DNA of 64,000 bases from Bradymonadia bacterium (GCA_047629415.1 JBLHWZ010000001.1:3808-67807); one strand, 5' to 3'. Counted from the first letter of the stretch, positions 20,650 through 51,929 are shown. Program-made: numbers and translations. The notes: a model not told the origin generated them from the sequence alone.

Positions 20650-23286
20650 ATGCGTCCATTCCTATTCCTTCTTGCCGCTCTTCCATTTGTTGCCTGCGGC
20701 ACAGACATCCGCAACCCCAATCCAGTCGATGCAGACGAAGATGGCGTCGTGGACTCGACTCCCGATGACTGCGAGCGGTCGACGATCTTCCCCGATGCGG
20801 ACCTCGACGGGCTCGGTGCGGACGCTGGAGCGTTGCAAGCCTGTGAACAGTTCGACGGCTGGGTCGCGGTCGGCGGCGACTGCGATGATCTGGACGCGGC
20901 GATTGGTGCTGGATTCACCTACTACGCCGACGTGGATGGCGACGGAACAGGAGATCCAGCAACCCCGATGATTGCGTGTGTTGCTCCCGACGGATTCGTC
21001 GACAACGCCAACGATACCTACCCCGCCTGTGACGGCGAACTCGACGCTTGTGGTGTTTGCGATGGGCCAGGTGCCTCCACATGGTACGCGGACGTTGATG
21101 GAGATGGCGTCGGGGACGAGCGCAGCAGTGTGCTCGCGTGCGAGGCGCCCGACGGATTCGTCGCCGAGTTCGGCGATATACTCGTCGAGTGTGAAACCGA
21201 CGAATTCGATTGCGCAGGCGTCTGCGGCGGTTCGGCCGAAAACGATGAATGTGGTGTCTGCGAGGGTCCCGGAGCAGCGACTTGGTATGTGGACACCGAT
21301 GGCGATGGGATTGGCGTCGATGAGGGCGCAGTCTCTCAGTGCGACCGGCCCGAAGGCGCCGTCGACATCAGTGGTGATCCCGAGCCGGAGTGTGCGACCA
21401 ACGACACGGATACGTGCGGCCTCTGTGCCGGACCCGGCCTGATCATGTTCTTCGCCGACGCGGATGGCGACGGTCTTGGAGACCGCTTCAGCACGGCGGC
21501 TGGCTGCGAAGCGCCGATCGGCCACGTCGAAAACAACACCGATCCCGAGCCCCTCTGCGCGACCAACGACTCCGATGAGTGCGGAATCTGCGCAGGCCCT
21601 GGCCCCCTGACCGTCTACGCCGACGTAGATGGAGACGGAGTCGGCGATGAGCGCGCGGCCATCGCCGCCTGCGACCTCTCACCCGGGTTCACCCTTGAGT
21701 TTGGCGACCCCCAGCCGGAATGTGCGACCGACGACACTGACGAATGCGGAGTCTGCGCGGGTGGCAACGCCACGATGGACTGCGTCGGTGTTTGCGACGG
21801 AGCCGCAGTGCTTGATGGCTGCAGTGCTTGCACCGGCGGGACCTCGGGCAACGAGCCATCTACCCTCGACACCGATCGCGACGGCATCCCTGATGCTTGT
21901 GACCTCTGCGAGGGCGCAGAGTCTGATCGCTTCGTCATCCAGTGGAACGAGGTTTCCCCGTTCGCGGGTGCAGGCGGCCCCTACACGTTCCAGGTCACAC
22001 TCTACTCAAACGGTGAATTCCGATACCAGTACTGGGACCTCGGCACCTACGAGGCGAGCGCCACGGTGGGCTACCAGTCTCAGGCGGGTGAGGACTTCAC
22101 CGAGCTCGGGTTTGGCTCACGCTTCCCGACCGACCACCCAGTGGTGCACTTCCGAGGTCTCGACGATGGTGGGGTCGCGGTCGAATACACGCCGCCAATG
22201 TCGTGGCTGAACATCGCGGATTCGGGCACTCGTCACCCGATGCCGGACGACGGCACCGTGATCGTCGAAATCGGCTTCGACTTCGTGTTCTTCGGCCAGA
22301 CGTACACTGAGGCGATCGTGAATTCGAACGGGTTCATCTCGTTCACCGAGCCGATCCCTGGCTACTCGAACACCAACCTCCCGAATGTCGCTGCCGGCGC
22401 CCTGCTCTCTCCGCTCTGGGACGACCTCAACCCCACCCGCGGCGGCGATCTCTACACGATGTTTGTGCCGCGCGGCTGCGCGCTGGACTGCGCTGGCCAA
22501 GCCGGCGGCGTCGCGTTCACCGACACCTGCGGCGATTGCACCGGCGGTGACACCGGCATCGCCCCGAACTCCAACACCGATTGTTTCGGTGTCTGTCATG
22601 GAGAGGCCGAGCTGGACATCTGCGGGGTCTGCGTCGGCGGAACAACGGGCGTTGACCCGTCGGACCCGCTCGATTGCCCGATGGGCGTCGATCTCATGAT
22701 CGACCAGGACTACCTCGCATCGACAATGTCGATTGAGTACCTGGAAGTCCCCGAAGGCAGCTGCCTGATCGCCGAAGGCTGCGTCCGTGGCTCCGGTAAC
22801 CGGAAGCTACTCCGCTTCGGAACTCGAATTGGAAACATCGGCAACATGGACCTCTCGATCGGTGTTCCGCCGTCTCGTGGCGAGAGCACCGATATATGGA
22901 CCTGGGACAACTGTCACGGCCATCACCACTACGCTGACTACGCTGCCTACGACCTCTTCGACGTAGCCAACGATGAGCTGATCCCGATCGGCTCCAAGAC
23001 CGGCTTCTGCGTCATGGATATCGGCGTCTATGACACGAGCATCACCACCGAGTGCAACGGCTACAATTGCGGCAATCAGGGCATCTCCGCCGGCTGCCAA
23101 GACACCTACGGCCCAAGCCTTCAGTGCCAGTGGATCGACGTCACTGACATCATCGACGGCACCTACGATGTCATCGTCACGACCAACCCTGTCGGGAACA
23201 TCGAAGAGCTGAACTACGACAACAACTCGAACCAGGTTCGAGTTGAGATTACAGGCGACGACGTCGCCGTAGTCGACGCGGACTAA
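20650..23286 (+). CDS. Large lipoprotein: about 7 MopE-type putative metal-binding repeats, a central beta-rich (NIDO-like?) domain and a C-terminal lysyl oxidase catalytic domain
   Basis: Lipobox LAALPFVACG. A module of about 80 aa repeats: YADVDGDGxGD ... C.AP.GFV ... DECGVCxGPGA.TWY. The C-terminus matches lysyl oxidase closely: WTWDNCHGHHHYADYAAYDL (Cu-site His), KTGFCVMD (LTQ Lys) and QGISAGCQDTYGPSLQCQWIDVTDIIDGTYDVIVTTNP...NYDNNSNQVRVEI. Confidence 0.85.
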   Translation: MRPFLFLLAALPFVACGTDIRNPNPVDADEDGVVDSTPDDCERSTIFPDADLDGLGADAGALQACEQFDGWVAVGGDCDDLDAAIGAGFTYYADVDGDGTGDPATPMIACVAPDGFVDNANDTYPACDGELDACGVCDGPGASTWYADVDGDGVGDERSSVLACEAPDGFVAEFGDILVECETDEFDCAGVCGGSAENDECGVCEGPGAATWYVDTDGDGIGVDEGAVSQCDRPEGAVDISGDPEPECATNDTDTCGLCAGPGLIMFFADADGDGLGDRFSTAAGCEAPIGHVENNTDPEPLCATNDSDECGICAGPGPLTVYADVDGDGVGDERAAIAACDLSPGFTLEFGDPQPECATDDTDECGVCAGGNATMDCVGVCDGAAVLDGCSACTGGTSGNEPSTLDTDRDGIPDACDLCEGAESDRFVIQWNEVSPFAGAGGPYTFQVTLYSNGEFRYQYWDLGTYEASATVGYQSQAGEDFTELGFGSRFPTDHPVVHFRGLDDGGVAVEYTPPMSWLNIADSGTRHPMPDDGTVIVEIGFDFVFFGQTYTEAIVNSNGFISFTEPIPGYSNTNLPNVAAGALLSPLWDDLNPTRGGDLYTMFVPRGCALDCAGQAGGVAFTDTCGDCTGGDTGIAPNSNTDCFGVCHGEAELDICGVCVGGTTGVDPSDPLDCPMGVDLMIDQDYLASTMSIEYLEVPEGSCLIAEGCVRGSGNRKLLRFGTRIGNIGNMDLSIGVPPSRGESTDIWTWDNCHGHHHYADYAAYDLFDVANDELIPIGSKTGFCVMDIGVYDTSITTECNGYNCGNQGISAGCQDTYGPSLQCQWIDVTDIIDGTYDVIVTTNPVGNIEELNYDNNSNQVRVEITGDDVAVVDAD

Positions 23287-35934: not shown

Positions 35935-36300
35935 CTAGGCCTGCTCTCGCTCGATCCTCAGCCCCACCCACTCCGGGTCGCCAGGCACACCGGTCGCGTA
36001 CTTGCGAATCGCCAGCCGAACCCGCTCGACTGAGAGCTCTTTCAGAACGCGGGCGCAGATCTCCTCGGCAAGCGTCTCAATCAAATGAACGCTGGGACCA
36101 TCAACCACATCGACAATGATCTGAGCGATGTCTCGGTAGTCGACCGTTCGGCCAAGCGCGTCCGTGGTCCCGGCAGACTGGGCCGGGACATCGACCTCTG
36201 CATCGAAGGCGAACCGGCGCCCCTCGGCCCGCTCCTCTTCGTACACGCCGTGGCGTCCGCGAATCTCAAGATTGTGCACTGCGATTGTGTCGTAGGTCAT
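35935..36300 (-). CDS. folB: 7,8-dihydroneopterin aldolase
   Basis: 121 aa. The start is set at MTYDTIAVHNLEIRGRHGVYEEER (FolB N-terminal pattern); the upstream extension of the track ORF is probably non-coding. The core VDYRDIAQ and the C-terminal region fit FolB. Confidence 0.75.
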   Translation of the reverse strand: MTYDTIAVHNLEIRGRHGVYEEERAEGRRFAFDAEVDVPAQSAGTTDALGRTVDYRDIAQIIVDVVDGPSVHLIETLAEEICARVLKELSVERVRLAIRKYATGVPGDPEWVGLRIEREQA

Positions 36301-36484
36301 GGAGCGCCGCGTAGCACACGGCGCCGTCGGAGGGCCAGACGGTTTGTCTGGCACGGACCACATGCTTTGGCAGCGACGGGCAATCCGGTCACTTGGGTTG
36401 TCGCAGAGAGAGTTGCGGCGCGTTCCGAAACCCATCGGCCGCCCTGGCATCGCAACGGAGCGCCCAACCATACACCGTCTCCCA

Positions 36485-36787
36485 ATGAACTACCGAAAAG
36501 CCAGTTCTCTGCTGGGCATCTGCACCCTCTCATTCCACCTAATCGCCTGTTCTGAGACAACCACGGAGTCGCTCGAAGAGTCGCTCGAAGAGCCCGACAC
36601 GGGCGCCGACATCGCGACTGGCGTAACGGATGCGGTGACCGTCGGGGTCGACACGGCGCCCGCTCCAGACCTCGGTAACGTGGCTGGCTCGTCGGATGCT
36701 TCCGACTCTGGCTCCGCCGACACGAGCGTCTGCTCGCAAGCACTGCCCCGAGTCGAAGAACCCTGGGCCCTGCCACGGGCGATATGA
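36485..36787 (+). CDS. Lipoprotein signal peptide plus D/S/T-rich linker; probably the frame-shifted 5' part of the downstream DUF3179 gene
   Basis: MNYRKASSLLGICTLSFHLIACSETT is a lipobox. It ends at TGA 36785-36787, which overlaps the ATG (36784) of the next ORF in another frame. Confidence 0.4.
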   Translation: MNYRKASSLLGICTLSFHLIACSETTTESLEESLEEPDTGADIATGVTDAVTVGVDTAPAPDLGNVAGSSDASDSGSADTSVCSQALPRVEEPWALPRAI

Positions 36788-37764
36788 TTCTGCGCGATAC
36801 GCTGACCGATTCCTTGTGGAACGCGCGCGGCGAATCGTTCGCCGCGCCGTGCGAGGGAGTCACCCTGACGAAGCTCCCGTCTCACAATGCGTTCTGGTTT
36901 TCTTGGAGCATCAGCCGAGAAGGACACCCAGTCTGGAATCGCGACGAAGCAAACTCCGCCGGCGCCATTCAAGCTGACGCAGCGGGCGACTGTTTGGTTC
37001 CATGCAACGAAATCCGCTCCGGCGGTCCGCCACCTGATGGTATCCCCGCGCTCGACGTCGACGGCCGATGGAATCGCCCGACGGCGGCTGTGATGGTCGC
37101 GCCGGAAGACCCATCCGCTGAGTATGTCCGCGATGACGACCTGGTCCTTGGCCTAGCGATCGACGGCGAAGCGCAGGCGTTCCCACACAGCATCCTGTGG
37201 TGGCATGAAATCCAGGTGGCACGAGTCGGCGGCCGTGAGGTCAACGTGACGTTCTGCCCACTGACCGGATCTGGGATGATCATCGACGGCGTGCAAGGTG
37301 GTGAGCCTTGGTATGCGTACGTCAGCGGGCGCCTCTTCAGCTCGAACCTGACCATGTTCGAGCGAGATATCGAAGACCCGATATTCTGGAATCAGATGTT
37401 GTTGCAAGGCGTGTCGGGCCCCCGCGCCGGCGAGCAGCTCGAGATTCTCCCGGTCACCGAGACGACCTGGGCACGCTGGCTCGAGATGTACCCGCAGACC
37501 ACGGTCACGAGCGACGAGACGGGCTACAGCCGCAACTACCAGAGCTATCCCTACGGCGACTACCGCTCGGACGATGCGGATACGTTCGCCGGCACTAATC
37601 CCCAGCCAGTAGATACCTACGAGAACAAGGACATGGTGCTGAGCGTTCAGGGCTCAAACATCAGCAAAGCCTATGCCTTCGACGAGATGGAGACCTTTGG
37701 CCAGCGTGTGGCTGTCAATGATGATTTTGATGGTACCCCCCATGGTGATCTTCTAGGACGCTGA
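36784..37764 (+). CDS. DUF3179-family protein (secreted, domain of unknown function)
   Basis: GIPALDVDGRW ... ILWWHEIQ ... VTFCPLTGSG ... LFSSNLTMFERDIEDPIFWNQ fits the DUF3179 pattern read by eye. This frame has no signal peptide of its own. Confidence 0.65.
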   Translation: MILRDTLTDSLWNARGESFAAPCEGVTLTKLPSHNAFWFSWSISREGHPVWNRDEANSAGAIQADAAGDCLVPCNEIRSGGPPPDGIPALDVDGRWNRPTAAVMVAPEDPSAEYVRDDDLVLGLAIDGEAQAFPHSILWWHEIQVARVGGREVNVTFCPLTGSGMIIDGVQGGEPWYAYVSGRLFSSNLTMFERDIEDPIFWNQMLLQGVSGPRAGEQLEILPVTETTWARWLEMYPQTTVTSDETGYSRNYQSYPYGDYRSDDADTFAGTNPQPVDTYENKDMVLSVQGSNISKAYAFDEMETFGQRVAVNDDFDGTPHGDLLGR

Positions 37765-37823
37765 ACACTCCGCCGCCGTCCCGTTCAGCCGCGAAGTCGG
37801 TAGCGAGACTCTCGAGTTCGAGG

Positions 37824-38441
37824 GTGCGAGCGCACCGTGACGGTCGCACAATGACAATTCGTCGAGCACTTCAAGTCCTCGTGAGTGCCCTTGCGGCATT
37901 CGCGTTTGCCCCCGGCTCAGCCCGCGCCATCTCAGGCTTCGCTCCCGAAGCGCAGTCGGCTTGGGTCGAGTTCGGGTGGTCCAGTTGGTCCGCAGACTCC
38001 CAATACGCGGGCCCCTTTAGTCCCGGTGAACTCAGCTACGACGGTGGCGCTTCACTCGGAGATCGGGTGCCTATCTCAATCGACGAGGATGGGGGGATAT
38101 TCGCAAGTACGTCGTTATATCTATCTATACGAGTGACGCAAGTCGAGCGGTTCAGCGACGGCGCGTACTTCCCCATTCAGCAGACATCAGTCTTGGAGTT
38201 GCCCTCGACCCGCACCACAACGGCGGGTACCCGGGACGTCTTCGCTTGGATGGCATACGAGATCTCGGAGACCGAGCGCGTCGGCGTTTCTTTGCTTGGG
38301 CATGTGAAGATTCCTACCACCCAAACCTCCTTCGAAAGCCTGACGGTGCCGCTGTCTGAGGGACAGGCGGACGTGGCGGTCGAACAACAAACGACGTTTG
38401 CGCCGACTCCGCAGCTGCACATCTCTGGACGCTTGCTGTAG
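37824..38441 (+). CDS. Secreted hypothetical protein, N-terminal part of an outer-membrane beta-barrel-like protein; ends at an in-frame TAG
   Basis: GTG start. A signal peptide (TIRRALQVLVSALAAFAFAPGSARA) is reached via the internal ATG 37851. Beta-rich segments follow. Confidence 0.55.
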   Translation: MRAHRDGRTMTIRRALQVLVSALAAFAFAPGSARAISGFAPEAQSAWVEFGWSSWSADSQYAGPFSPGELSYDGGASLGDRVPISIDEDGGIFASTSLYLSIRVTQVERFSDGAYFPIQQTSVLELPSTRTTTAGTRDVFAWMAYEISETERVGVSLLGHVKIPTTQTSFESLTVPLSEGQADVAVEQQTTFAPTPQLHISGRLL

Positions 38442-38811
38442 CGCTACCGATTCCAGGTACAAGAGGAGGTTGGCGGTTCGACCGCGACGATCAAGCCGGG
38501 TAACGAGACGGAGATCGGTATCGAGTTTACTGGGGCCCCACAACGGGATCTCTGGCTGCGTACGACATACAACGGACTCTTCGCCCAAACGTCAGAAGAC
38601 CGCACGGTATCGGAGTTCATCGGGCCGAAGGAGCGCCGGCAGCTGCACACGGCTGAGTTTGGCGCCTATGTGAACTTCGGGCGCTGGATCCACGAGAAGG
38701 CAGACGGCATCGCCCTCGACGCTTGGTATCGGCATCCTCTCGGCGGCGTAGACTACCTCCGCGGGGGTTCGGTAGGCCTCGGATTGGCCTATGGGTTCAA
38801 CTGGGGCGACT
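38442..38811 (+). other. In-frame continuation (about 123 codons, no ATG, no stop) of the preceding CDS after its TAG; reads as the C-terminal strands of the same protein
   Basis: Translated by eye: RYRFQVQEEVGGSTATIKPGNETEIGIEFTGAPQRDLWLRTTYNGLFAQTSEDRTVSEFIGPKERRQLHTAEFGAYVNFGRWIHEKADGIALDAWYRHPLGGVDYLRGGSVGLGLAYGFNWGD*. Coordinates are within about 1 nt. Confidence 0.45.
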
Positions 38812-38881
38812 GAGTGCTTCTACGAGCCTCCAATGGCGGCTGGCGCGTTGTCCGCCGCAGCCAATGTGGTAGAGTACGCCG

Positions 38882-39475
38882 ATGTCTCACCCTGAACACA
38901 ACTCGACCCCCGACCGCGTCAAACTTCCGTTCACCTTCGACCCCGAGCGGTTGCTGGCGGAAGTTCAGGCCATGTCTCTCAGAGACTTCGTTCATTACGA
39001 TGTCGTGCCGTTGCGATCGCCGGCCCACTTCGTTGATCCGACCGTCCCGGCGCCTCCTCCAGCCGCGGACTTCGCTGACGGAAGCTGGACTCAGTGGAAA
39101 GACGCGCCCGGCCTCGAACGATCGCCGCACCTGCAGGAGGTCCTCGCCGCGTTCAACGCGAACACAGCGGTGAACCTGGTCCGGGTGCTTCGACTAGAAG
39201 CAGGTGGAGTGATCGCCGAACACACCGATCCAACACTTGGTCTGCACATTGAGCGTTCGATGGTGCGACTCACCGTTCCGATCGTTCGTGGGCCAGCCTG
39301 CACTTTCTGGCTCAACGACATCCCGGTACCGATGCTGCCAGGCGAATGCTGGTACCTGCGCCTTACCGATCCTCACAAAGTGCACAACAACGGGACGGCG
39401 GAGAGAATGAGCCTGACGATCGATGTGGTCCCGAACCCTTGGCTACAAGAGCTCATCCAGTCCGCAGCGCTCTAG
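38882..39475 (+). CDS. Aspartyl/asparaginyl beta-hydroxylase-family cupin (AspH/LpxO-like, Fe/2OG-type)
   Basis: LRLEAGGVIAEHTD ... TFWLNDIPVPMLPGECWYL ... HKVHNNGTAERMSL resembles the Asp_Arg_Hydrox domain (PF05118). Confidence 0.65.
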   Translation: MSHPEHNSTPDRVKLPFTFDPERLLAEVQAMSLRDFVHYDVVPLRSPAHFVDPTVPAPPPAADFADGSWTQWKDAPGLERSPHLQEVLAAFNANTAVNLVRVLRLEAGGVIAEHTDPTLGLHIERSMVRLTVPIVRGPACTFWLNDIPVPMLPGECWYLRLTDPHKVHNNGTAERMSLTIDVVPNPWLQELIQSAAL

Positions 39476-39552
39476 AAGACCGCAGGCGCCAGGCGGCTGT
39501 GTTGACTGCGTGCTGGCGTTGCCTCGTGCTCCTCTCGTGTTAGAAGACGCTC

Positions 39553-40626
39553 ATGACCTTGCTCGACCAACTCCGCCCGCCCGAAACGAAGGCCCGCGCA
39601 TCCGTCGCCCGCCTCTCGAAGGCTTGGTACGTCGCCTGCTTCTCCCACGAACTCCGCGCCAAGCCAGTGGCGCGTACGATTCTCGGGATACCACTCGCCG
39701 TTTATCGGAAGTCAGATGGTTCACCCGCCGCCGTGCTGGATCGATGCGCGCACCGCAACGCTCCGCTGAGTGAAGGCCAGGTAAAGGGGGATTGCGTCGA
39801 GTGCCCTTATCATGGGTGGCAGTTCAACTCGGACGGCGACTGCACCACAGTTCCCGGCTTGATGTCAGAAGAGGCATCGCGCGGCAGGCGGGTGAGCGCG
39901 TATCCAGCTCTCGAGCGCGACGGTTTTGTTTGGATTTGGACCGACGCGGACGAGCCGCCCGATCGCGAGCCGTTTGCGTTCCCGCTCGCAGATGCAGACG
40001 GCTACACGACCGTCCGCCGTATGGTGGAGGCCGAGGGCACCATGCACTCAGTCATCGAAAACGCGCTGGACGTTCCACACACCGCATTCCTCCACAAAGG
40101 CCTCTTTCGAGGTGTTTCCGAACCCAACGAGATTGAGGTGGTCATCCGCCGAGAGACCGACAGGGTCGAGGCGGAGTACATCGGAGAGCCGCGGCCAGAG
40201 GGAGTCATCGGCAGGTTCCTTTCACCATCCGGCGGGCTCGTCGTTCATTTCGACCGGTTCATTCTCCCGTCGATTCTGCAGGTTGAGTATTCGATTGGTG
40301 ACGAGAATCATGTGCTCGTGACTGGCGCTTGTACACCGGTCAATGACTTCCACACGCGGATGTATGCGGATGTGAAGGTCCGGTCTCGCGTTCCCGGGTG
40401 GCTCGTTAAGCTGGCGACGCCACTCGGCGTGAAGGTGTTCCAGCAGGACGCCGAAATGCTCGCGCTACAGACGGAGAACATTCGGAGATTCGGCGGGGAG
40501 CAGTTCGAGTCCACCGAGATAGACGTGCTTGGCGGACATATTTGGAAGCTGCTGAGGCAGGCCGAGCGCGGAGTAGAGGCGGAGCACGCCGAGTACGCTG
40601 AGAAGCGGTTCAAACTGCGCGCCTGA
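39553..40626 (+). CDS. Rieske [2Fe-2S] non-heme iron oxygenase, VanA/PaO-like (vanillate O-demethylase oxygenase-subunit family architecture)
   Basis: N-terminal KAWYVACFSHEL (compare VanA NAWYVAC). Rieske motif CAHRNAPLSEGQVKGDCVECPYHGWQF. Length about 357 aa with a C-terminal catalytic domain (DVPHTAFLHKG). Confidence 0.8.
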   Translation: MTLLDQLRPPETKARASVARLSKAWYVACFSHELRAKPVARTILGIPLAVYRKSDGSPAAVLDRCAHRNAPLSEGQVKGDCVECPYHGWQFNSDGDCTTVPGLMSEEASRGRRVSAYPALERDGFVWIWTDADEPPDREPFAFPLADADGYTTVRRMVEAEGTMHSVIENALDVPHTAFLHKGLFRGVSEPNEIEVVIRRETDRVEAEYIGEPRPEGVIGRFLSPSGGLVVHFDRFILPSILQVEYSIGDENHVLVTGACTPVNDFHTRMYADVKVRSRVPGWLVKLATPLGVKVFQQDAEMLALQTENIRRFGGEQFESTEIDVLGGHIWKLLRQAERGVEAEHAEYAEKRFKLRA

Positions 40627-40637
40627 CCGCGCACACC

Positions 40638-41471
40638 TTGAAGAATCCTATGCCCTACTCTGCCACGGCTAGCGTCTACGAACTCAACGGAGACGTTGCG
40701 ACTCCACAGGAGCCAGCGCGAAGCGGTTGGGATCCGCGTCTCGTTAACGGGAGTTCCACCTCTGCGCTGCTGGCCGCCGTGCTCGAGCGCGACCTTGCGC
40801 GCGAGGGTCACGCCCCCGCTCGGTTCATCGTCGATATGTTGCGGCCTATTCCGTTCGCCGATGCACGAGTAGAATCAGTCGTCACCCGGATGGGAGGGCG
40901 CCTTGCGCTCGGTGATGTGTCGATGTTTGTCGGAGACAAACTCGTCGCGCGGGCTTCGGGCATGTACTTGGCGCAGAACGAAGGCGACGAGTTCGCGACC
41001 CCGAACGCAACGCCTACCTCAGCCGATCAGCTGCGAAACGGGGTGCTGCTCCCGGACTTTGGGAGCGCCAGGGAACAGCCGCCGTTCCAGCATTTCTGCG
41101 ACATTCGATGGGCGACCGAGTTCGAGGCGACCGCTCCTGTCGTATGGTTTCGGCCACCGCCGGCCTTGATCGGTGGCCTACCGCCGTCCGACACGGTTCG
41201 TGCCGTCGCAGTGGCTGACTTGCTCGCTGGTCTCACCGTCACACACCAGATACGCAGCGGTTTTCCTCACGCGGCAGCGATCAACGCTGATCAACACATC
41301 GTCTTCGCCGGAGCGCCCGTAGGTGAGTGGTTCGCGCTGCGTATGGAGAGGGTCGCAGCTTCGCAAGGAGCGGGTTTTGCGTCAGCGGACGTCCTCGATT
41401 CTAGGGGACTGCGTGGCCGAGTGACACACACACGGGTCGGAAATCGGCCGCAGGCGAGGTCGCCAAGGTAA
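40638..41471 (+). CDS. Thioesterase-like (double hot-dog / acyl-CoA thioesterase II-like) protein, tentative
   Basis: 277-aa ORF located between the Rieske and CCD genes. A fold-level resemblance was recognised by eye with low certainty. Confidence 0.45.
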   Translation: MKNPMPYSATASVYELNGDVATPQEPARSGWDPRLVNGSSTSALLAAVLERDLAREGHAPARFIVDMLRPIPFADARVESVVTRMGGRLALGDVSMFVGDKLVARASGMYLAQNEGDEFATPNATPTSADQLRNGVLLPDFGSAREQPPFQHFCDIRWATEFEATAPVVWFRPPPALIGGLPPSDTVRAVAVADLLAGLTVTHQIRSGFPHAAAINADQHIVFAGAPVGEWFALRMERVAASQGAGFASADVLDSRGLRGRVTHTRVGNRPQARSPR

Positions 41472-41522
41472 AACGGACTCCGCGACCAAGACAGTGTGCC
41501 CTGTTCCAGATAGACTGGGCCA

Positions 41523-42965
41523 ATGAACATGCATCTCAACCCGTATCTCGCTGGTCCCTACGCCCCCATCGATGCAGAGCGCGGGCCCGTTACGCTCAAC
41601 GCGATCGAAGGTGAGATCCCCCGCGATCTTAACGGGATCTACGTGCGCAACGGTCCGAACCCCAAACATGAGGCGGAGGGTCAATACCACTGGTTCGACG
41701 GTGACGGCATGCTGCATTCGGTGCTCTTTGAGGACGGCACTGCGACCTATCGTAACCGCTGGATTCAGACCTCCCACATGGCTCGCGAGACCGAGGCTGG
41801 ACGAGCGCTCTGGCGCGGTTTGCTCGAGTCCGCTGCAAGGAACCCGAGGGACTCACCTTACAAGCTCACCGCGAATACGGACGTACTGAGTTGGAACGGG
41901 AAGCTCTACTGCCTCTGGTACATCTCGGGTACGCCCTACGCAGTCGACCTCGAGACATTAGAGACGTTTGGCGAAGAGACCTTTGCGCATGAAGGACTCC
42001 GCACGACGGCACACGCCAAGGTCTGCAGCGAAACCGGGGAGCTCATCTTCTTCGACTACGGCTTCCGCGCCCCTTTTATGCGCTGCGGCGTCGTGGGAAC
42101 TGACGGAGTGGTTAGCAACCTCGCCTCGATCGATCTCGGCGGGCCCCGCCTTCCGCACGATCTCGCGATAACGCGAAACCACACAATCCTCATGGATCTA
42201 CCGGTTCTCCCAGACCCTGAGGCCCTAAAGCGGGGGCGTTGGCGAACCAGCTTCGCCTCCGAAGTGCCTGCCCGGTTCGGCGTGATGCCTCGGCACGGCC
42301 GGGGAAGCGATATTCGCTGGTTCGAGGCAGCTCCCTGCTACGTCTACCATGTCATCAACGCGTGGGAGGATGGCAACACGATCGTCATGACTGGTTGCCG
42401 CTGCCCGGACCCGATCCAAGCGCCACGCGAGCGCGATGGAAAGCTCGGTCAGATGATGGCGAACCTACGAGTCACGGCGAGTTTGCATCGTTGGACCTTC
42501 GACCTGGACACCGGCGAGTGCCGCGAAGAGCAGCTCGACGACCGCAATGCAGAGTTTCCGAGCGTCGATCTCCGAACCGTCGGCCAAGCGAACAGGCACG
42601 GTTTCACAATGGCGCTCGACATCGACTCGACCCTGCGGTTCTCCGGTATCGTGAAGTATGATCTGCACACCGCCTCGGCCACCGAATGGAGCGTCGGCGA
42701 GGGGCGCTTCGCGAGCGAGGCCCCTTTTGCCCCTCGCGACGGCAGCGAGAGCGATGACGATGGGTATCTGGTCTCGCTCGTCAGGGACGCCAACTCCGGC
42801 GGCTCTGAGTTGGTGATACTCGACGCCGCGGACCTCCAGCAGGTCTGCAGACTCAGCGTGCCGTTCGACGTGCCTAACGGATTCCACGCAACTTGGGCCG
42901 ACTCGGATGAGCTGGCCAAAGCCCGAACCGCCTCATCCTCGAATCTGCTCACTCATCGGGGTTAG
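41523..42965 (+). CDS. Carotenoid-cleavage-dioxygenase family enzyme (RPE65 family; carotenoid/stilbene/isoeugenol oxygenase-like)
   Basis: The N-terminal NPYLAGPYAPIDAE...LNAIEGEIPRDLNGIYVRNGPNP...HWFDGDGMLH is the canonical CCD start. It is about 480 aa with conserved His positions. Confidence 0.9.
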   Translation: MNMHLNPYLAGPYAPIDAERGPVTLNAIEGEIPRDLNGIYVRNGPNPKHEAEGQYHWFDGDGMLHSVLFEDGTATYRNRWIQTSHMARETEAGRALWRGLLESAARNPRDSPYKLTANTDVLSWNGKLYCLWYISGTPYAVDLETLETFGEETFAHEGLRTTAHAKVCSETGELIFFDYGFRAPFMRCGVVGTDGVVSNLASIDLGGPRLPHDLAITRNHTILMDLPVLPDPEALKRGRWRTSFASEVPARFGVMPRHGRGSDIRWFEAAPCYVYHVINAWEDGNTIVMTGCRCPDPIQAPRERDGKLGQMMANLRVTASLHRWTFDLDTGECREEQLDDRNAEFPSVDLRTVGQANRHGFTMALDIDSTLRFSGIVKYDLHTASATEWSVGEGRFASEAPFAPRDGSESDDDGYLVSLVRDANSGGSELVILDAADLQQVCRLSVPFDVPNGFHATWADSDELAKARTASSSNLLTHRG

Positions 42966-43018
42966 GTCGATGTTTAGCTGACCGTGAGACCCTCACGTCC
43001 CAAGTTGGGCGCTGGGCC

Positions 43019-45730
43019 TTACGGTCCCGGTACGATCCTGGCCGTCACACGCAGAGCCGATCCGTCCGCCCCGAGAGCGGGCAGCCGTACGGTCATCGTC
43101 GTCCCCTTGCCGACCGCGCTGGCAGCGTCCAGCGTGCCACCAGCATTTTCAATCGCACTCTGAGAGATCGACAAGCCGACGCCCATGCCCTGACCCTCCC
43201 CCGTGGTTGTGTAAAAGGGAGTGAACACTCGGACGAGATCTTCACGAGAGATTCCACAGCCGCTGTCGACGACGCGGATAATAAGCTCTGCCCCGAAAAC
43301 CGCGCTGCGCACGAAGACCTTGTCTCCAGCAACGCTGGCGTCGATCGCGTTCTGAATCAGGTTTCGGAAGGCCTGCTGAATCTCATCGGATAGGGTTCGC
43401 ACATAAACGTGGGGCGCACCCAACTCGAGTTCGACGTCGATCTCCTCTGTCTCCCCGCGGGAAGAGACGAGCTTGGCCAAGTCGGCCAATGTCTCGTCGA
43501 TAGGCACGAGGGAGGCGGTGTTGGGGAACCCCTCGCGGGAGTAACGATGCAAGATGTCTACGACGCCTTGGATCCGCAGAACACCGGAGTCGGTGGCCTT
43601 CTGGAGGCGGTGCATGCGGTCCGCGGCCTTCTGCAGCTTCTTGGCACGCTCTTCGGTGGAAAGCTGTTCGTCTTCGATGATTGTCATCGCCTTGGCGATC
43701 GTCTCGGCGACAAGCTGCGCGGTGCTTCGGATGTAGGTGAGCGGGTTGTGAATCTCGTGAGCGAGTCCGGCACTGACTTGCTCCAAACTCCGCTTTTGCG
43801 CTCGAATAATCGTGCGAACCTGACGACCTCGTTTGATCAGTTCGTTTCGGACGACGGTGCGGAGCTCCTTTGGAGAGAAGGGCTTCGCCATGTAGACATC
43901 AGCGCCCTTTCCGTAGGCCGTCTCCCGGTGCTCGACCTCGTTGCGACCGGTAAGCATCACGATCGGCGTCTCGGCGATCGTAGCGTCATTTCGAATCGCC
44001 TCGATCATCTGCACGCCGTTCATTACCGGCATCATATAGTCGGTAACGATCAGATCGGGCTTCTCACGCCGCGCGAGCTCCAGACCCATAGCACCGTCGG
44101 TGGCAGTGTAGACCGCGTGCTCCTCGTTGAGGAGTTGGGTGACGAATCGAATGATCTCGACGGTGTCCTCGACGATGAGCACCTTGGTGGGCTTGCCCTC
44201 GTCGTCTCGATTGCTGAGAACCCGCCGCTCCGTCGCTTCGTCGAGGCCGTAGAGGCGGTAGTCCTCAAGTTCGGTCAACGATTTCGACCACTCCGCTGCT
44301 CCACCATCCTCTTCTCGTCGGACTTGGTTGGAATCCGTGGGGTTACACTGGCGGCGCTCGATCGCATCAGGAGCGAAGTGTTCGGTGCCGCGAACGAGTC
44401 TGACAGTGAACGTGGTGCCCACTCCTTCCTCGCTCTCCACATCGATCGTGCCATTGTGAAGGTCGACGATCTCCTTCGCCAGGGCGAGTCCGATCCCGGT
44501 GCCGCCGAAGTTCCTCGACGCAGACTGGTCGGCTTGAGTGAAGCGCTCAAAGATCGACGGCAGGTAGTCTTCAGCAATGCCGATTCCGTTGTCTGTGACC
44601 CGAATCTCGACGCAATCTGGCTGCGTCACACAGCTGAGCCCCACCGTACCGCCTTCGGAAGTGAATTTGAGCGCGTTTGCCAAGAGGTTCACCAAGACAC
44701 GCTCCAGCATGTCCTCATCCGCGTAGAGGTCTGACGGAGGCGGCTGCGCGTCAATCGTCAGGTCGATGTCCTTCCGGGACGCCATCGACTCGGTCCGCGT
44801 GACGAGGTCCTCTAGGACGGTGACCGGGTTCACGATTCCGAGGCGAAGCCTCAGGTGACTCTCCTCGAGCTTTGCGAGGTCGAGCAGGTCAGTGATGAGC
44901 TTGAGAAGACGAACCGCATTACGCCACATGCCGTCGACATAGGATCGCAGCTCAGCGGGCAGATGAGCCTCGCCGTCGCGCAACTCCTGGAGCGGAGACA
45001 TCACGAGCGTCAGCGGAGTCCGCAGTTCGTGGGTGATGTTATTGAAGAACTGGGTTTTCACTCGGTCGGCGTCGCGCAGTTTTACGTTCGCGACCTCTAG
45101 CCTGTCTCGAGCTGACGCCAGTTCGCCATAGGCCTCATAAAGCTTCCGCGCGGCCGAGTCGCTCTCCGTCTCCAGTCGCGCGCGATTGCGCTGCGCGTAG
45201 ACGGCCACGAAGGTTGTCGTGAGGATGTACCCAACGTGAGAAATCGCCGCCGCCGAGTTGATCTTCCAAGCCCCAACGAACAGGGGCGCGAAGTAAGGCC
45301 CGAGCGCCGCTGCATAGAAGAGCGCAAGTGTGCGGCCTGACCACCGGAAGAGTAGAGCAACGGAGATCATGACGAACATGAGCCCGACGAAGTATTCCGA
45401 CTCGAAGCCTCCGTCGAAGGCGACCAGCGTCGTCATTGCCCATGCGACCGCGAGCCCGAGCCCGACACTCACAGCGACGTCGTGAGGCCGGAGCCATGCC
45501 GGCGGCTTTCGAGAGACCAAAAGCACGAGCGCACCGATGACAAAGAGCGACACTCGCACGGCGATAGTCACACCGATCGCATCAGCGATAAGGACCCGAT
45601 CCAGCGCCCAGTAGAACGGCTCCAACACGACGACGGTTAAGGCCGCGACCGGAATTAGGCGCCAGTTCCGAGCGCGGGCGGCCTCGGCCGGGGCAATTGG
45701 GAGTGCGCGGACGCTGTCGGTGCTGCTCAA
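43019..45730 (-). CDS. Hybrid sensor histidine kinase: TM sensor region, HisKA/HATPase, REC receiver, then a second HisKA/HATPase
   Basis: About 8 N-terminal TM helices. First H-box HELRTPLT with G-boxes. Receiver KVLIVEDTVEII...DLIVTDYMMPVMNG...K. Second H-box AGLAHEIHNPLTYI and a C-terminal ATPase domain. Confidence 0.9.
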   Translation of the reverse strand: MSSTDSVRALPIAPAEAARARNWRLIPVAALTVVVLEPFYWALDRVLIADAIGVTIAVRVSLFVIGALVLLVSRKPPAWLRPHDVAVSVGLGLAVAWAMTTLVAFDGGFESEYFVGLMFVMISVALLFRWSGRTLALFYAAALGPYFAPLFVGAWKINSAAAISHVGYILTTTFVAVYAQRNRARLETESDSAARKLYEAYGELASARDRLEVANVKLRDADRVKTQFFNNITHELRTPLTLVMSPLQELRDGEAHLPAELRSYVDGMWRNAVRLLKLITDLLDLAKLEESHLRLRLGIVNPVTVLEDLVTRTESMASRKDIDLTIDAQPPPSDLYADEDMLERVLVNLLANALKFTSEGGTVGLSCVTQPDCVEIRVTDNGIGIAEDYLPSIFERFTQADQSASRNFGGTGIGLALAKEIVDLHNGTIDVESEEGVGTTFTVRLVRGTEHFAPDAIERRQCNPTDSNQVRREEDGGAAEWSKSLTELEDYRLYGLDEATERRVLSNRDDEGKPTKVLIVEDTVEIIRFVTQLLNEEHAVYTATDGAMGLELARREKPDLIVTDYMMPVMNGVQMIEAIRNDATIAETPIVMLTGRNEVEHRETAYGKGADVYMAKPFSPKELRTVVRNELIKRGRQVRTIIRAQKRSLEQVSAGLAHEIHNPLTYIRSTAQLVAETIAKAMTIIEDEQLSTEERAKKLQKAADRMHRLQKATDSGVLRIQGVVDILHRYSREGFPNTASLVPIDETLADLAKLVSSRGETEEIDVELELGAPHVYVRTLSDEIQQAFRNLIQNAIDASVAGDKVFVRSAVFGAELIIRVVDSGCGISREDLVRVFTPFYTTTGEGQGMGVGLSISQSAIENAGGTLDAASAVGKGTTMTVRLPALGADGSALRVTARIVPGP

Positions 45731-48359: not shown

Positions 48360-49556
48360 ATGCGCTCACGACAAAAAATCACCGACGCCTTCATCTATGG
48401 CGGCATTCGCACGCCTCGCGGAAAGTCGCGACCCGAAGGGGCGCTCCACTCCGTCCGCCCCTCCCGATTGGCAGCCTACGTCCTCCAATATCTGGTCGCA
48501 GAGCACAGCAGGTCCGAGATCGACGATATCCTTCTAGGTTGCTCAACGGCTAGCGGGGAGCAGGGCGCAGACATCGCGCGAATCGCTGCTCTGATGGCGG
48601 GTCTCATCGAAGCTCCAGGCGCGACCATCAGCCGCTTCTGCACTTCCGGCCTAGACGCCGTCGCGCTAGCGGCTGCCAAGGTCGCGTCCGGCGCCGCGTC
48701 GCTCACGATCGCAGGTGGCGTGGAGTCTACCTCACGGGTCCCGATGTTCGCGGACGGCGGCGACTGGTTCGCGGACACGGAGGTCGCGTCGGAGACTGGA
48801 TTTGTGCACATGGGAGTCTCGGCAGACCTCCTCGCGACGCTCGCGGGTTTGGAACGGGGGGCGCTAGACGCCTACGCCCAGCGCTCGCATCAACGTGCCG
48901 CCGAGGCACGCGACGGCGCGATGTTCAAATCGTTACGGCCTGTTGAACTCGCTGACGTCGCGTTCGCTCAGGACGAGCTTATCCGGGATGGAATCTCGCT
49001 CTCTAAGCTGGCGTCCCTGACGCCTGCGTTTGATAATGTCGGGGGGGATAACATCGTGCGTTCGCGGTACCCTGAAATCGGAGAGGTTCGACGGCTTCAC
49101 ACCGTCGGCACATCACCGTCCCTAGCGGACGGCGCCTGCGCGCTTTACGTCGGGGACGAAGAGGGCGGCGCAAAACTCGGCGCTGTACCTCGAGCCCGAA
49201 TCGTTGGGTCCGCGACACATGCGGTGGAGCCGGTCCTCATGCTCACAGGAAACGTCGAGTGCACACGAAAAGCTCTGCGGAGCGCCGGTATGGAGCTCGG
49301 TGACATCGACGTGTTCGAGGTCAACGAGTCGTTCGCCGCCGTGCCTCTGCACTATAGCCGCGAGCTCTGCATCGATGAGAGCGACCTCAATGTCTTTGGT
49401 GGTGCGATCGCGATGGGGCATGCACTTGGAGCGACCGGTGCAATGCTGGTCCTCACCGCCCTGGATGTACTTGAGCAACGCGACGCGAACACCGCCGTGG
49501 TATCGATTTGCGGCGGAGCTGGCGTCGCAACGACGCTGGTCCTCGAACGTGTATGA
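48360..49556 (+). CDS. Acetyl-CoA C-acyltransferase (thiolase family)
   Basis: Active-site Cys region RFCTSGLDAV and C-terminal NESFAAV...GGAIAMGHALGATGA...CGGAGVA. Confidence 0.9.
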   Translation: MRSRQKITDAFIYGGIRTPRGKSRPEGALHSVRPSRLAAYVLQYLVAEHSRSEIDDILLGCSTASGEQGADIARIAALMAGLIEAPGATISRFCTSGLDAVALAAAKVASGAASLTIAGGVESTSRVPMFADGGDWFADTEVASETGFVHMGVSADLLATLAGLERGALDAYAQRSHQRAAEARDGAMFKSLRPVELADVAFAQDELIRDGISLSKLASLTPAFDNVGGDNIVRSRYPEIGEVRRLHTVGTSPSLADGACALYVGDEEGGAKLGAVPRARIVGSATHAVEPVLMLTGNVECTRKALRSAGMELGDIDVFEVNESFAAVPLHYSRELCIDESDLNVFGGAIAMGHALGATGAMLVLTALDVLEQRDANTAVVSICGGAGVATTLVLERV

Positions 49557-49772
49557 TGACGACCAAGGCTGCTCTGCCGCTGGGCAACTCCATGAGTCAT
49601 GGTGGGCGCAGAGGCTTCAGTTCGAGGCCGGCAGACGAGACGACGGGAGGACAGTCGCGCCGCTCCCGCGCGAACCCAAATCCAGTCCCCCTTCCTTCCC
49701 CTCAAACTCCGAGCGGCCATGTACACAATATGGACGAGGCGTGTAGGCTCGCCGCATCATGAGCTGGGTCGC

Positions 49773-51929
49773 ATGAACTACTTCTCCACTTGTCTCGCAC
49801 TCGCCTCACTCGTCGCTCTCTCAGCGTGCACCAGCGACCGTCCGCCCGGGAACCCGGGAGTCGATACGGAGCCGAGCGCTGACACGATCGACGCAGGCCC
49901 CGACTTGGTTGTGGCGGACACTGACGTCGCCCCCGACAGTTCCGATGTCGGGCCTGACACTGCCCTGGACACCCCCGACTCCGAGCAGGACGTTCGGCTC
50001 GACATAGCGCCGGAAACTGGAGAAACAGGAGTTCCCGACCCCCGCGAGACCGGAGAAGACTGCCGAGACTCAGAGGACTGCGAGAGCGGCCTCTGCATCG
50101 TGGTAGCCGCGGGACGCAGCGTCTGTTCGAACGAGTGTGACGCTGGCTGCCAAGCGGGCTGGACCTGCTTGGGCGCGATCTGCCAATGCGGGGCAGGCGA
50201 AGAGATCTGCGATGGGCTAGACAACGACTGTGACGCGCACGTCGACGAAGGCGGCGCCGAGTTAATCGGGTGCCCAGCCGGAGGCGTCTGCGACGCGGGT
50301 GTTTGCGGCTGCCCTTCCGACGAACTGATCTGCGACGACGGCTGCTTTGATTCCATGACCAGCAACGAACATTGTGGTGGGTGCGACCAAGCATGCTCGC
50401 CCGGCGACCTCTGCATAGATGGCTACTGTCCCTGCCTCTCCGGTGACGAAACGCGCTGTGATTCTCTGTGTACGGATCTCACGAGCGACGTGGACAACTG
50501 CGGGGGCTGCGGTGTCTCTTGCGGATTCGGCGTCTGCGACGAAGGCGCGTGCATCTGTGGCGAACCTGAGACGAGCTGTGAGAGCGGCTGCGCCGACGTC
50601 GCAACCGATTGGCAAAACTGCGGCGCCTGCGGGACCGTTTGCGGCGACGATCAGGTCTGCGTGGCGGGCGCGTGTGAATGCGGCTGCCCCGATGCCAGTT
50701 GCGCAGACGGAGCGTGCCTTCCGCTCGGATTTGGGAACTCACTGACCCTCGAGTTCGAGTTCAACGGGGCAGCCCTCCGAACCGACATCGTCTTCAATAT
50801 CGACACCACCGGGTCGATGGGCCCGTCGATCGAGATCCTGGATCGTGACTTCGATGACGGCATCCTTCTGGCATCACGCGACGCTTTTGAGGACCCCGCA
50901 TTCGCGCTCACCTCGTTCGCCGATTTCCCATGTGTATGGAACGGATCCGGCGGTAGCGGGCGAGACGTCCCCATGCGACTGGAGCAGCGAATAACTGCGT
51001 ACCCGAGCCAGTTAGTCGCGGCGCTAGGTAGGCTGCGTGCTGCCGGCGGACGCGATATCCCGGAGACAGGAATCGAGGCGCTCTATCAGATCGCGACCGG
51101 CGTCGGATCTGATGAGTGCCGCCCAGGTATCGTCGCTCCGTTCGATCCGCGCGTGGGGAGAATCGAGGGCGTAGCCGACGGGGTGGCCGGGGGAGTCGGC
51201 TTCCGCGAGGGCGCCCAACCGATCGTATTCCATCTCACCGACGCCCCCAGCCACGCGCGCGAGGATGAGCAATATAAGTTCGGTGCCACCGAGCCTGAAG
51301 CGATCGCCGCCCTCCAAGAAGCGGGCATTCGTGTCGTCGGTCTCTTCACCATCGACGATGCTCTGGAAGACCTCGAGGCCTTCATCGCAGAGACTGGAGC
51401 GGCAGCCCCGACTTGCGCATGGGATGCTGCAAGACACTTCGACTGCTCGCCCGGTGAGTGCTGCACATGGCTCGGACGCTCGGGCACCGAACCGGACTCG
51501 ACCGGCCGATGCCCTCTTGGCTACTACGTGCGCCGCGGCTTCTTGAACGAAGACGACCTCACGGATGTCGCGTCAGACGCTTATCGCGTGCTGACCCAAC
51601 ACGTAGGCCGTGATGTGGTCATCCGTGCCGTGTCTAACCGAGAGGCTGCGGACCCCGCCTTTGACACGCGCTGCCTGATAGAAGAGCTCCGCATCGTCGA
51701 AACGGCTTCGAGCGGCGAGTGTCGACCCGAAACGATAACGGTGGACGTCGACGCAGATGGTGTGACGGAAGCAGCAACCGGTGTGACGGCGGCAACCACA
51801 GTGAGGGTTGAAGTCGACGTGAACAACACGTGCGCAAACGATGCAGGCGCCTACCCCGTGCACTTCGAACTCACAGGCACCGACGGGGTGCTCCTGGGCG
51901 AAGAGTCGGTCGCGTTCTTCGTACGCTAG
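49773..51929 (+). CDS. Lipoprotein with Cys-rich repeats (CxDGxDNDCD, myxobacterial Cys-rich repeat type) and a C-terminal vWA-like domain
   Basis: The start is set at ATG 49773 (MNYFSTCLALASLVALSACTSD lipobox). Repeats like ICDGLDNDCDAHVDEGG are present. IVFNIDTTGSMGP is a MIDAS-like motif. Confidence 0.65.
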   Translation: MNYFSTCLALASLVALSACTSDRPPGNPGVDTEPSADTIDAGPDLVVADTDVAPDSSDVGPDTALDTPDSEQDVRLDIAPETGETGVPDPRETGEDCRDSEDCESGLCIVVAAGRSVCSNECDAGCQAGWTCLGAICQCGAGEEICDGLDNDCDAHVDEGGAELIGCPAGGVCDAGVCGCPSDELICDDGCFDSMTSNEHCGGCDQACSPGDLCIDGYCPCLSGDETRCDSLCTDLTSDVDNCGGCGVSCGFGVCDEGACICGEPETSCESGCADVATDWQNCGACGTVCGDDQVCVAGACECGCPDASCADGACLPLGFGNSLTLEFEFNGAALRTDIVFNIDTTGSMGPSIEILDRDFDDGILLASRDAFEDPAFALTSFADFPCVWNGSGGSGRDVPMRLEQRITAYPSQLVAALGRLRAAGGRDIPETGIEALYQIATGVGSDECRPGIVAPFDPRVGRIEGVADGVAGGVGFREGAQPIVFHLTDAPSHAREDEQYKFGATEPEAIAALQEAGIRVVGLFTIDDALEDLEAFIAETGAAAPTCAWDAARHFDCSPGECCTWLGRSGTEPDSTGRCPLGYYVRRGFLNEDDLTDVASDAYRVLTQHVGRDVVIRAVSNREAADPAFDTRCLIEELRIVETASSGECRPETITVDVDADGVTEAATGVTAATTVRVEVDVNNTCANDAGAYPVHFELTGTDGVLLGEESVAFFVR

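Follow-up and report, generated by a model that had tools for sequence, protein, structure and literature searches.

A 64,000-nucleotide stretch of the genome of a Bradymonadia bacterium (GCA_047629415.1, JBLHWZ010000001.1:3808-67807), referred to below as the window, carries a block of four co-directional genes on the + strand. These are an AspH-like gene for an Fe(II)/2-oxoglutarate (2OG) oxygenase of the Asp_Arg_Hydrox family (38882-39475, 197 amino acids [aa]), a Rieske gene for an α3-type oxygenase component with Rieske and VanA_C domains (39553-40626, 357 aa), a thioesterase-like (TE-like) gene for a protein with a predicted TesB-type double-hotdog fold (40650-41471, counted from its ATG, 273 aa), and a carotenoid cleavage dioxygenase (CCD) gene of the RPE65/carotenoid-oxygenase family (41523-42965, 480 aa). 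Comparison with related genomes indicates that the block is probably a lineage-specific juxtaposition of three units that have evolved separately rather than a conserved pathway. The four genes themselves are new, uncharacterized members of known enzyme families.

The first-pass annotation, made by a model from the sequence alone, had placed the four open reading frames (ORFs) correctly, and all four of its family assignments were backed by Pfam, in the case of the TE-like protein together with Foldseek. The tight spacing that it described also held, but the values that it gave (78, 12 and 52 nt) are coordinate differences and are each off by one from the actual noncoding gaps of 77, 11 and 51 nt. 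Read from the ATG at position 40650, the TE-like gene is separated from the Rieske gene by 23 nt; an alternative TTG start at 40638 would give a protein of 277 aa, while homologs and gene callers use the ATG (“MPYS”). GC content is flat over the block, at about 0.61 to 0.62. Four closely spaced co-directional genes are nothing unusual for a bacterial genome. A consensus-based promoter and terminator scan of positions 36400 to 43300 returned counts no higher than those in shuffled sequence and was uninformative on operon structure, and no element from Rfam was detected anywhere in the window. The catalytic motifs of the AspH-like, Rieske and CCD proteins are intact, and, judged by these residues, the enzymes look functional.

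Distribution of the four genes in related genomes

The locus is shared by three related genomes, represented by the window, L095 and L008/L009, which formed a clade in 200/200 bootstraps of a Rieske tree; the same proteins were also found on JGI metagenome contigs. The tree supports two branching orders among the three relatives almost equally (51% versus 47% bootstrap), so that the CCD gene was either lost in L095 or gained later. In the window all four genes of the block are intact, and the two genes upstream of them, encoding a DUF3179 lipoprotein and a 312-aa protein (orf312), are apparently disrupted. The order in L095 is DUF3179-orf312-AspH-Rieske-TE, followed after 70 bp by a convergent kinase gene; all five genes are present, and the CCD gene is absent. 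In L008/L009 the order is FolB-Rieske-TE-CCD remnant. These loci have no AspH-like gene and no DUF3179 or orf312 gene beyond a 143-bp orf312 remnant, which in L008 matches window positions 38616-38758. Their CCD gene is a pseudogene that has lost its start codon and its C-terminal half and contains in-frame stops, and its motifs have changed from HWFDGDGM to HWCDGDGM and from PHD to PHG. The Rieske and TE-like genes are the sole constant part of the block in the three relatives.

Synonymous divergence (dS) among the three relatives exceeds 1 and is saturated. The intact genes have ratios of nonsynonymous to synonymous divergence (ω) of 0.02 to 0.14, indicating purifying selection: 0.02 to 0.05 for the Rieske gene in clade pairs, 0.06 to 0.08 for the TE-like gene, and 0.14 for the AspH-like gene compared with the L095 copy (74% identity). 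The members of the block have thus been lost independently of one another, and they probably form no obligatory four-enzyme pathway, which would be expected to disappear as a set. The four genes may still share one transcript in this organism.

Outside the clade, we surveyed the neighborhoods of the best 80 species loci from more than 586 Rieske relatives (53 to 76% identity, at most 8 kb per side). AspH-like, TE-like and CCD genes were found within 8 kb in none of these 80 loci, even at an E value of 1e-3. Likewise, Rieske, TE-like and AspH-like genes were found in 0/83 CCD-anchored loci, and the three closest CCD homologs (55 to 57% identity) have none of the three partner genes nearby. The four genes occur together in none of the other loci sampled. 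The first-pass annotation had described them as a compact oxygenase cassette and had named a lack of co-location elsewhere as evidence against that description; because the four genes were never co-located in the other loci sampled, the cassette reading fails on its own terms.

The Rieske gene has a history of its own. In orthologs of 80% and 78% identity it is a solitary gene flanked by ABC1 kinase and peptidase M3 genes, and in L010 and L012 the Rieske gene adjoins a divergently transcribed ABC1/UbiB-type kinase gene. When ORFs of at least 120 aa from the 80 loci were clustered, no neighbor was conserved in more than 12/80. The most frequent real neighbor was a Ser/Thr kinase (12/80), and the others (OmpA, D-Tyr deacylase, DUF4112, Uma2 and PALP) share no theme. 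The top clusters by frequency were discarded as alternative-frame artifacts of the Rieske gene itself.

We propose that the block comprises the following three units. The first would be a small Fe(II)/2OG hydroxylase resembling small-molecule hydroxylases, gained and lost together with DUF3179 and orf312. The second would be a strongly conserved α3-type Rieske monooxygenase or demethylase that normally stands alone and is probably supplied with electrons by a reductase whose gene lies elsewhere; in this clade it is followed, 11 to 23 nt on, by the clade-restricted TesB-fold gene, with which it is probably co-transcribed. The third would be a CCD that most likely cleaves a double bond of a carotenoid, an apocarotenoid or another polyene and whose recurrent neighbors in other genomes are thiolases rather than oxygenases.

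Enzyme families of the block

The AspH-like protein matched Pfam Asp_Arg_Hydrox (2.3e-10, 41 bits versus a cut-off of 22.6) and belongs to a family with 1138 representatives at E ≤ 1e-3, within which His114-x-Asp116, His165 and Arg175 are invariant. Its AF2 model (pLDDT 89.6) was compared with solved structures using Foldseek, which placed L-proline cis-4-hydroxylase, proline 3-hydroxylase and a nucleoside-antibiotic hydroxylase (E values of 1.6e-9 to 5e-7) above AspH (3e-6). A sequence search of the PDB returned proline hydroxylases alone, and its E value of 3e-4 makes the similarity to any solved enzyme marginal. The name AspH-like is therefore apt at the Pfam level but not as a statement of structural closeness, as the closest folds are free-proline hydroxylases. 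With these enzymes and with AspH the protein shares the double-stranded β-helix, the HxD...H plus Arg motif and the Asp_Arg_Hydrox match; unlike AspH, it is far smaller (197 aa) and has neither a TPR region nor a region for binding a substrate protein.

Some relatives of the AspH-like protein carry a fused GNAT acetyltransferase or sulfotransferase domain (P0247, P0269, P0279, P0281 and P0390 are among the sequences concerned), and the N-terminal region of P0247 is methyltransferase-like by eye, with no Pfam match. Such fusions hint at small-molecule or peptide tailoring. A Rosetta-stone link between the AspH-like protein and orf312 was considered and rejected, as the N-terminal domains of the long fusions P0247 and P0263 showed no similarity to orf312.

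The Rieske protein matched the Pfam models Rieske (7.5e-25) and VanA_C (1.4e-11, 45.4 bits versus a cut-off of 23.5). In a 22-sequence alignment, the [2Fe-2S] ligands Cys65, His67, Cys84 and His87 and the mononuclear-iron motif E169-x3-D173-x2-H176-x4-H181 were invariant, as was D299, which from its position we infer to be the third iron ligand. The sequence AWYVAC, one of the features that had prompted the comparison with vanillate O-demethylase, lies at residues 24 to 29. With the VanA/GdmA/DdmC class the protein has in common the CxH...CxxH and E-x3-D-x2-H-x4-H motifs, the VanA_C domain, a length of about 350 aa and the lack of a β subunit. The solved structures closest to it are those of GdmA (112 bits; 7QWT; PMC12445004) and DdmC (108 bits). 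The term VanA-like thus describes the class of the enzyme, with matches to GdmA and DdmC of about 110 bits, and the protein differs from the VanA class in being a member of a widespread stand-alone family with no assigned substrate. None of the O-demethylase NCBIfam models was matched at its cut-off. The top NCBIfam match, the sterol 4-β-methyl oxidase SdmA, was rejected because its score of 78 bits falls far below the cut-off of 600 and because the match spans only the first 200 or so model positions.

Unlike VanAB, the Rieske gene has no adjoining VanB-type reductase gene, as the first-pass annotation had remarked. Pfam scans of the main window ORFs found no VanB-type flavin/[2Fe-2S] reductase or ferredoxin, and no recurrent reductase was present among the neighbors of the 80 Rieske ortholog loci. 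Orthologs of the protein reach 89%, 80% and 78% identity, with more than 586 genome matches. In a genome-wide scan, relatives occurred in Myxococcota, Gemmatimonadota, Binatia, KSB1 and other groups; the family is large and strongly conserved, at 53 to 61% identity across phyla.

Both halves of a TesB-type thioesterase were recognized in the TE-like protein by Pfam (4HBT_3, 3e-7, and 4HBT_3C, 6e-10), while searches of NCBIfam and of PDB sequences gave no match; an identical NCBI entry is named hypothetical protein. The AF2 model is of moderate confidence (pLDDT 60.7, pTM 0.69), with residues 110-149 and 199-212 too uncertain for placement of the Asp/Thr/Gln catalytic triad of TesB, and in Foldseek it matched TesB structures (E value of 5e-12, TM score of about 0.6). 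On this model the protein has a TesB-type double-hotdog fold and is a putative acyl-CoA-thioesterase-II-like protein. It resembles TesB in this fold and in both Pfam halves and is unlike it in having about 17% identity and in belonging to a tiny family. This family is very rare: a search of 5.8 billion proteins gave five 90%-identity clusters, and this Bradymonadia clade accounts for three of the five. The TE-like gene lies directly 3′ of the Rieske gene in all three relatives.

The CCD matched Pfam RPE65 over model positions 3 to 468 of 469 (1.2e-127, 427 bits versus a cut-off of 27). Its four iron-binding histidines, H164, H212, H276 and H455, were invariant in a 25-sequence alignment and align to the corresponding histidines of CCD1 and VP14. 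The top PDB match was a carotenoid 9,10-dioxygenase (253 bits), compared with 170 to 185 bits for lignostilbene dioxygenases (LSDs). The top NCBIfam model was that of an 8′-apocarotenoid 13,14-cleaving dioxygenase (NF052295), at 270 bits versus an equivalog cut-off of 675; the two LSD models gave 224 bits (cut-off 800) and 164 bits (cut-off 650), and every NCBIfam match, including NF052295, fell below its equivalog cut-off. Its closest homologs, at 57% identity at most, are uncharacterized. On sequence grounds the protein resembles carotenoid-type CCDs most closely. It is like CCD1, NCED and Mycobacterium Rv0654 in its full-length seven-bladed-propeller RPE65 domain and four histidine ligands, and unlike them in its modest identity to characterized enzymes and its missed equivalog cut-offs.

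LsdA, LSD4 and NOV1 belong to the same superfamily, have a similar length and account for the secondary matches of 164 to 224 bits; the window CCD lies far below the LSD cut-offs and differs from these enzymes at two substrate-binding positions. In an alignment to 5V2D, which we take to be an LSD and on which we placed Tyr-101 and Lys-134 ourselves, the LSD motifs VYRN and ALKE face LLES and CLWY, so that Leu and Trp occupy the Tyr-101 and Lys-134 positions. In LSDs, Tyr-101 and Lys-134 hydrogen-bond the 4-hydroxyl of the stilbenoid substrate (PMC8191317). Because the window CCD is without this Tyr/Lys pair of stilbene-cleaving enzymes, a role in stilbene or isoeugenol cleavage is disfavored.

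The sampled homologs of the window CCD (39 to 57% identity) often adjoin thiolase genes, a further difference from the CCD1/NCED/Rv0654 type. Thiolase genes were located near the CCD homolog in 28 of the 73 loci with usable flank, and in 16 of them one lay within 300 nt (L004, L006 and L098-L173 are among the loci). The CCD-linked thiolases are of two types, PRK06289 and PRK08242, with one or both present per locus. A PRK08242-type thiolase gene, identified by Pfam and NCBIfam, is also present in the window (48360-49556, + strand), 5.4 kb downstream of the block and past the convergent kinase genes. Its product is 54% identical, over the full length, to the second thiolase of a CCD-thl1-thl2 operon in L006, and it is possible that the window thiolase is a remnant of the CCD-thiolase association. 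We found no description of a CCD-thiolase cluster in the literature, and literature searches on carotenoids in Bradymonadales and on myxobacterial Rieske oxygenases returned nothing relevant.

Surroundings of the block

The DUF3179 and orf312 genes lie upstream of the AspH-like gene at 36299-38815 (+ strand) and were recognized by Pfam DUF3179 and by tblastn with the L095 proteins, which hit the window in three frames. Compared with L095, the DUF3179 lipoprotein gene is split by frameshifts near 36775-36790 and at about 37740, and in orf312 a Trp codon of L095 is replaced by an in-frame TAG (38439-38441). These disruptions could reflect real pseudogenes or assembly errors. Both genes travel with the AspH-like gene: they accompany it in L095, and L008, which retains only the short orf312 remnant, has no AspH-like gene.

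On the other side, the block faces a convergent hybrid histidine kinase gene (43019-45730, − strand; Pfam), in whose product two HisKA plus HATPase units flank one receiver domain. The kinase/methyltransferase operon that the first-pass annotation had described here was confirmed on the minus strand. The kinase is conserved in the window and L008 along with two further proteins, a CMAS-type methyltransferase and one of 485 aa that matches methyltransferases weakly. The rest of the window is housekeeping in character and includes genes for lipoyl synthase, a 2-oxoacid dehydrogenase complex, FolB, a thiolase, HflX, Mfd, transporters and glycosyltransferases. Two further proteins stood out. An 878-aa protein (20650-23286) ends in a lysyl-oxidase domain (1.4e-33) and also matches the nidogen-like (NIDO) domain weakly, a combination that is, to our knowledge, unusual in bacteria. 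A 776-aa protein (49599-51929) has no Pfam match and a subthreshold match to the MXAN_6577-like cysteine-rich family of NCBIfam (76.7 bits versus a cut-off of 100).

Alternative explanations and significance

Several points weigh against a juxtaposition of unrelated units. The surveys sampled flanks of 8 to 10 kb, and tblastn is weak for families as divergent as the AspH-like and TE-like ones. Outside this clade, neighbors were surveyed from Rieske and CCD anchors; those of AspH-like genes were surveyed within it. The genes are tightly spaced, and L008 retains remnants of both orf312 and the CCD gene; the ancestor of the clade may already have had most or all of the block, which would make the arrangement old within the clade. 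In addition, all four window genes are intact, with purifying selection wherever it could be measured, and co-transcription combined with a facultative shared role of the four genes is possible.

Among the explanations that involve a shared function, the one we take most seriously, while leaning against it, is that the Rieske and TE-like genes alone form a functional two-gene module, with the AspH-like and CCD genes as bystanders. The substrate of the oxygenase would then be linked to acyl-CoA or to an acyl carrier, with the TesB-fold protein hydrolyzing or binding the thioester. Such a module is consistent with the adjacency of the two genes in all three relatives with gaps of 11 to 23 nt, with the strong purifying selection on both, and with the TesB fold confirmed by Foldseek on the predicted model. 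Against it, no TE-like gene lies beside the Rieske orthologs at 80% and 78% identity or in the 80 species loci, and a TE homolog in L093 (52% identity) adjoins methyltransferase and NAGPA-like genes on a 6.1-kb contig that has no Rieske gene. We consider it unlikely that the block is a clade-specific accessory pathway for carotenoids or apocarotenoids, obtained for instance from prey. In such a pathway, cleavage by the CCD would be accompanied by hydroxylation or demethylation by the Rieske and 2OG enzymes, and a CoA-linked intermediate would be freed by the hotdog protein. The co-directional, tightly spaced and intact genes of the window, the affinity of the CCD with carotenoid-type enzymes and the L008 remnants, which hint at a whole block in the clade ancestor, would all fit this pathway. 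However, L095 keeps the AspH-like, Rieske and TE-like genes without a CCD gene, and L008 has lost the CCD and AspH-like genes yet kept the Rieske and TE-like genes under strong constraint (ω of 0.02 to 0.08). The combination recurs in 0/163 anchored loci and so has no positive comparative support, and the Rieske gene is a widely conserved stand-alone ortholog whose function must predate the block. Neither a carotenoid-synthesis gene nor a reductase gene was found among the main window ORFs scanned. The apocarotenoid-tailoring cassette suggested in the first-pass annotation is not borne out by these comparisons, since relatives are without one or two of its four genes.

The same annotation had offered stilbene or isoeugenol cleavage coupled to O-demethylation, that is, a lignin-type aromatic catabolism with stilbene or isoeugenol as the substrate of the CCD and with the resulting vanillin or vanillate O-demethylated by the VanA-like Rieske enzyme. 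This is highly improbable. The VanA_C domain, the aryl O-demethylases GdmA and DdmC as closest solved Rieske relatives, and the secondary LSD matches of the CCD (224 and 164 bits) point toward such a route; but the CCD carries Leu and Trp in place of both 4-hydroxyl-binding residues and misses the LSD equivalog cut-off widely (224 versus 800), the Rieske matches to GdmA and DdmC are low, and the genes are not co-located in the other loci sampled. Among the scanned window ORFs there was also no gene for a VanB-type reductase, an aldehyde dehydrogenase or a ring-cleavage enzyme, and the host, an uncultured member of Bradymonadia, comes from a predatory lineage. The preferred explanation thus remains a juxtaposition of three units. 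There is, in our estimate, a small chance of a more far-reaching history, in which the AspH-type, Rieske, orphan TesB-fold and CCD enzymes were brought together in the clade ancestor as a new accessory pathway that would remodel carotenoid or polyene material, possibly from prey, and whose genes sister lineages are now losing one by one. As a separate possibility, the pairing of CCDs with thiolases could be the sign of a bacterial route, so far undescribed, that channels CCD cleavage products into β-oxidation-like chemistry.

If a four-gene pathway did exist, it would represent a new bacterial route that links the cleavage of double bonds to oxygenation by Rieske and 2OG enzymes. The value of the present result is mainly negative, in that a tempting but unsupported operon hypothesis is removed. 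Its by-products may merit modest follow-up: a stand-alone Rieske family, an association between CCDs and thiolases, and a TesB-fold family for which the databases searched hold hardly any relatives.

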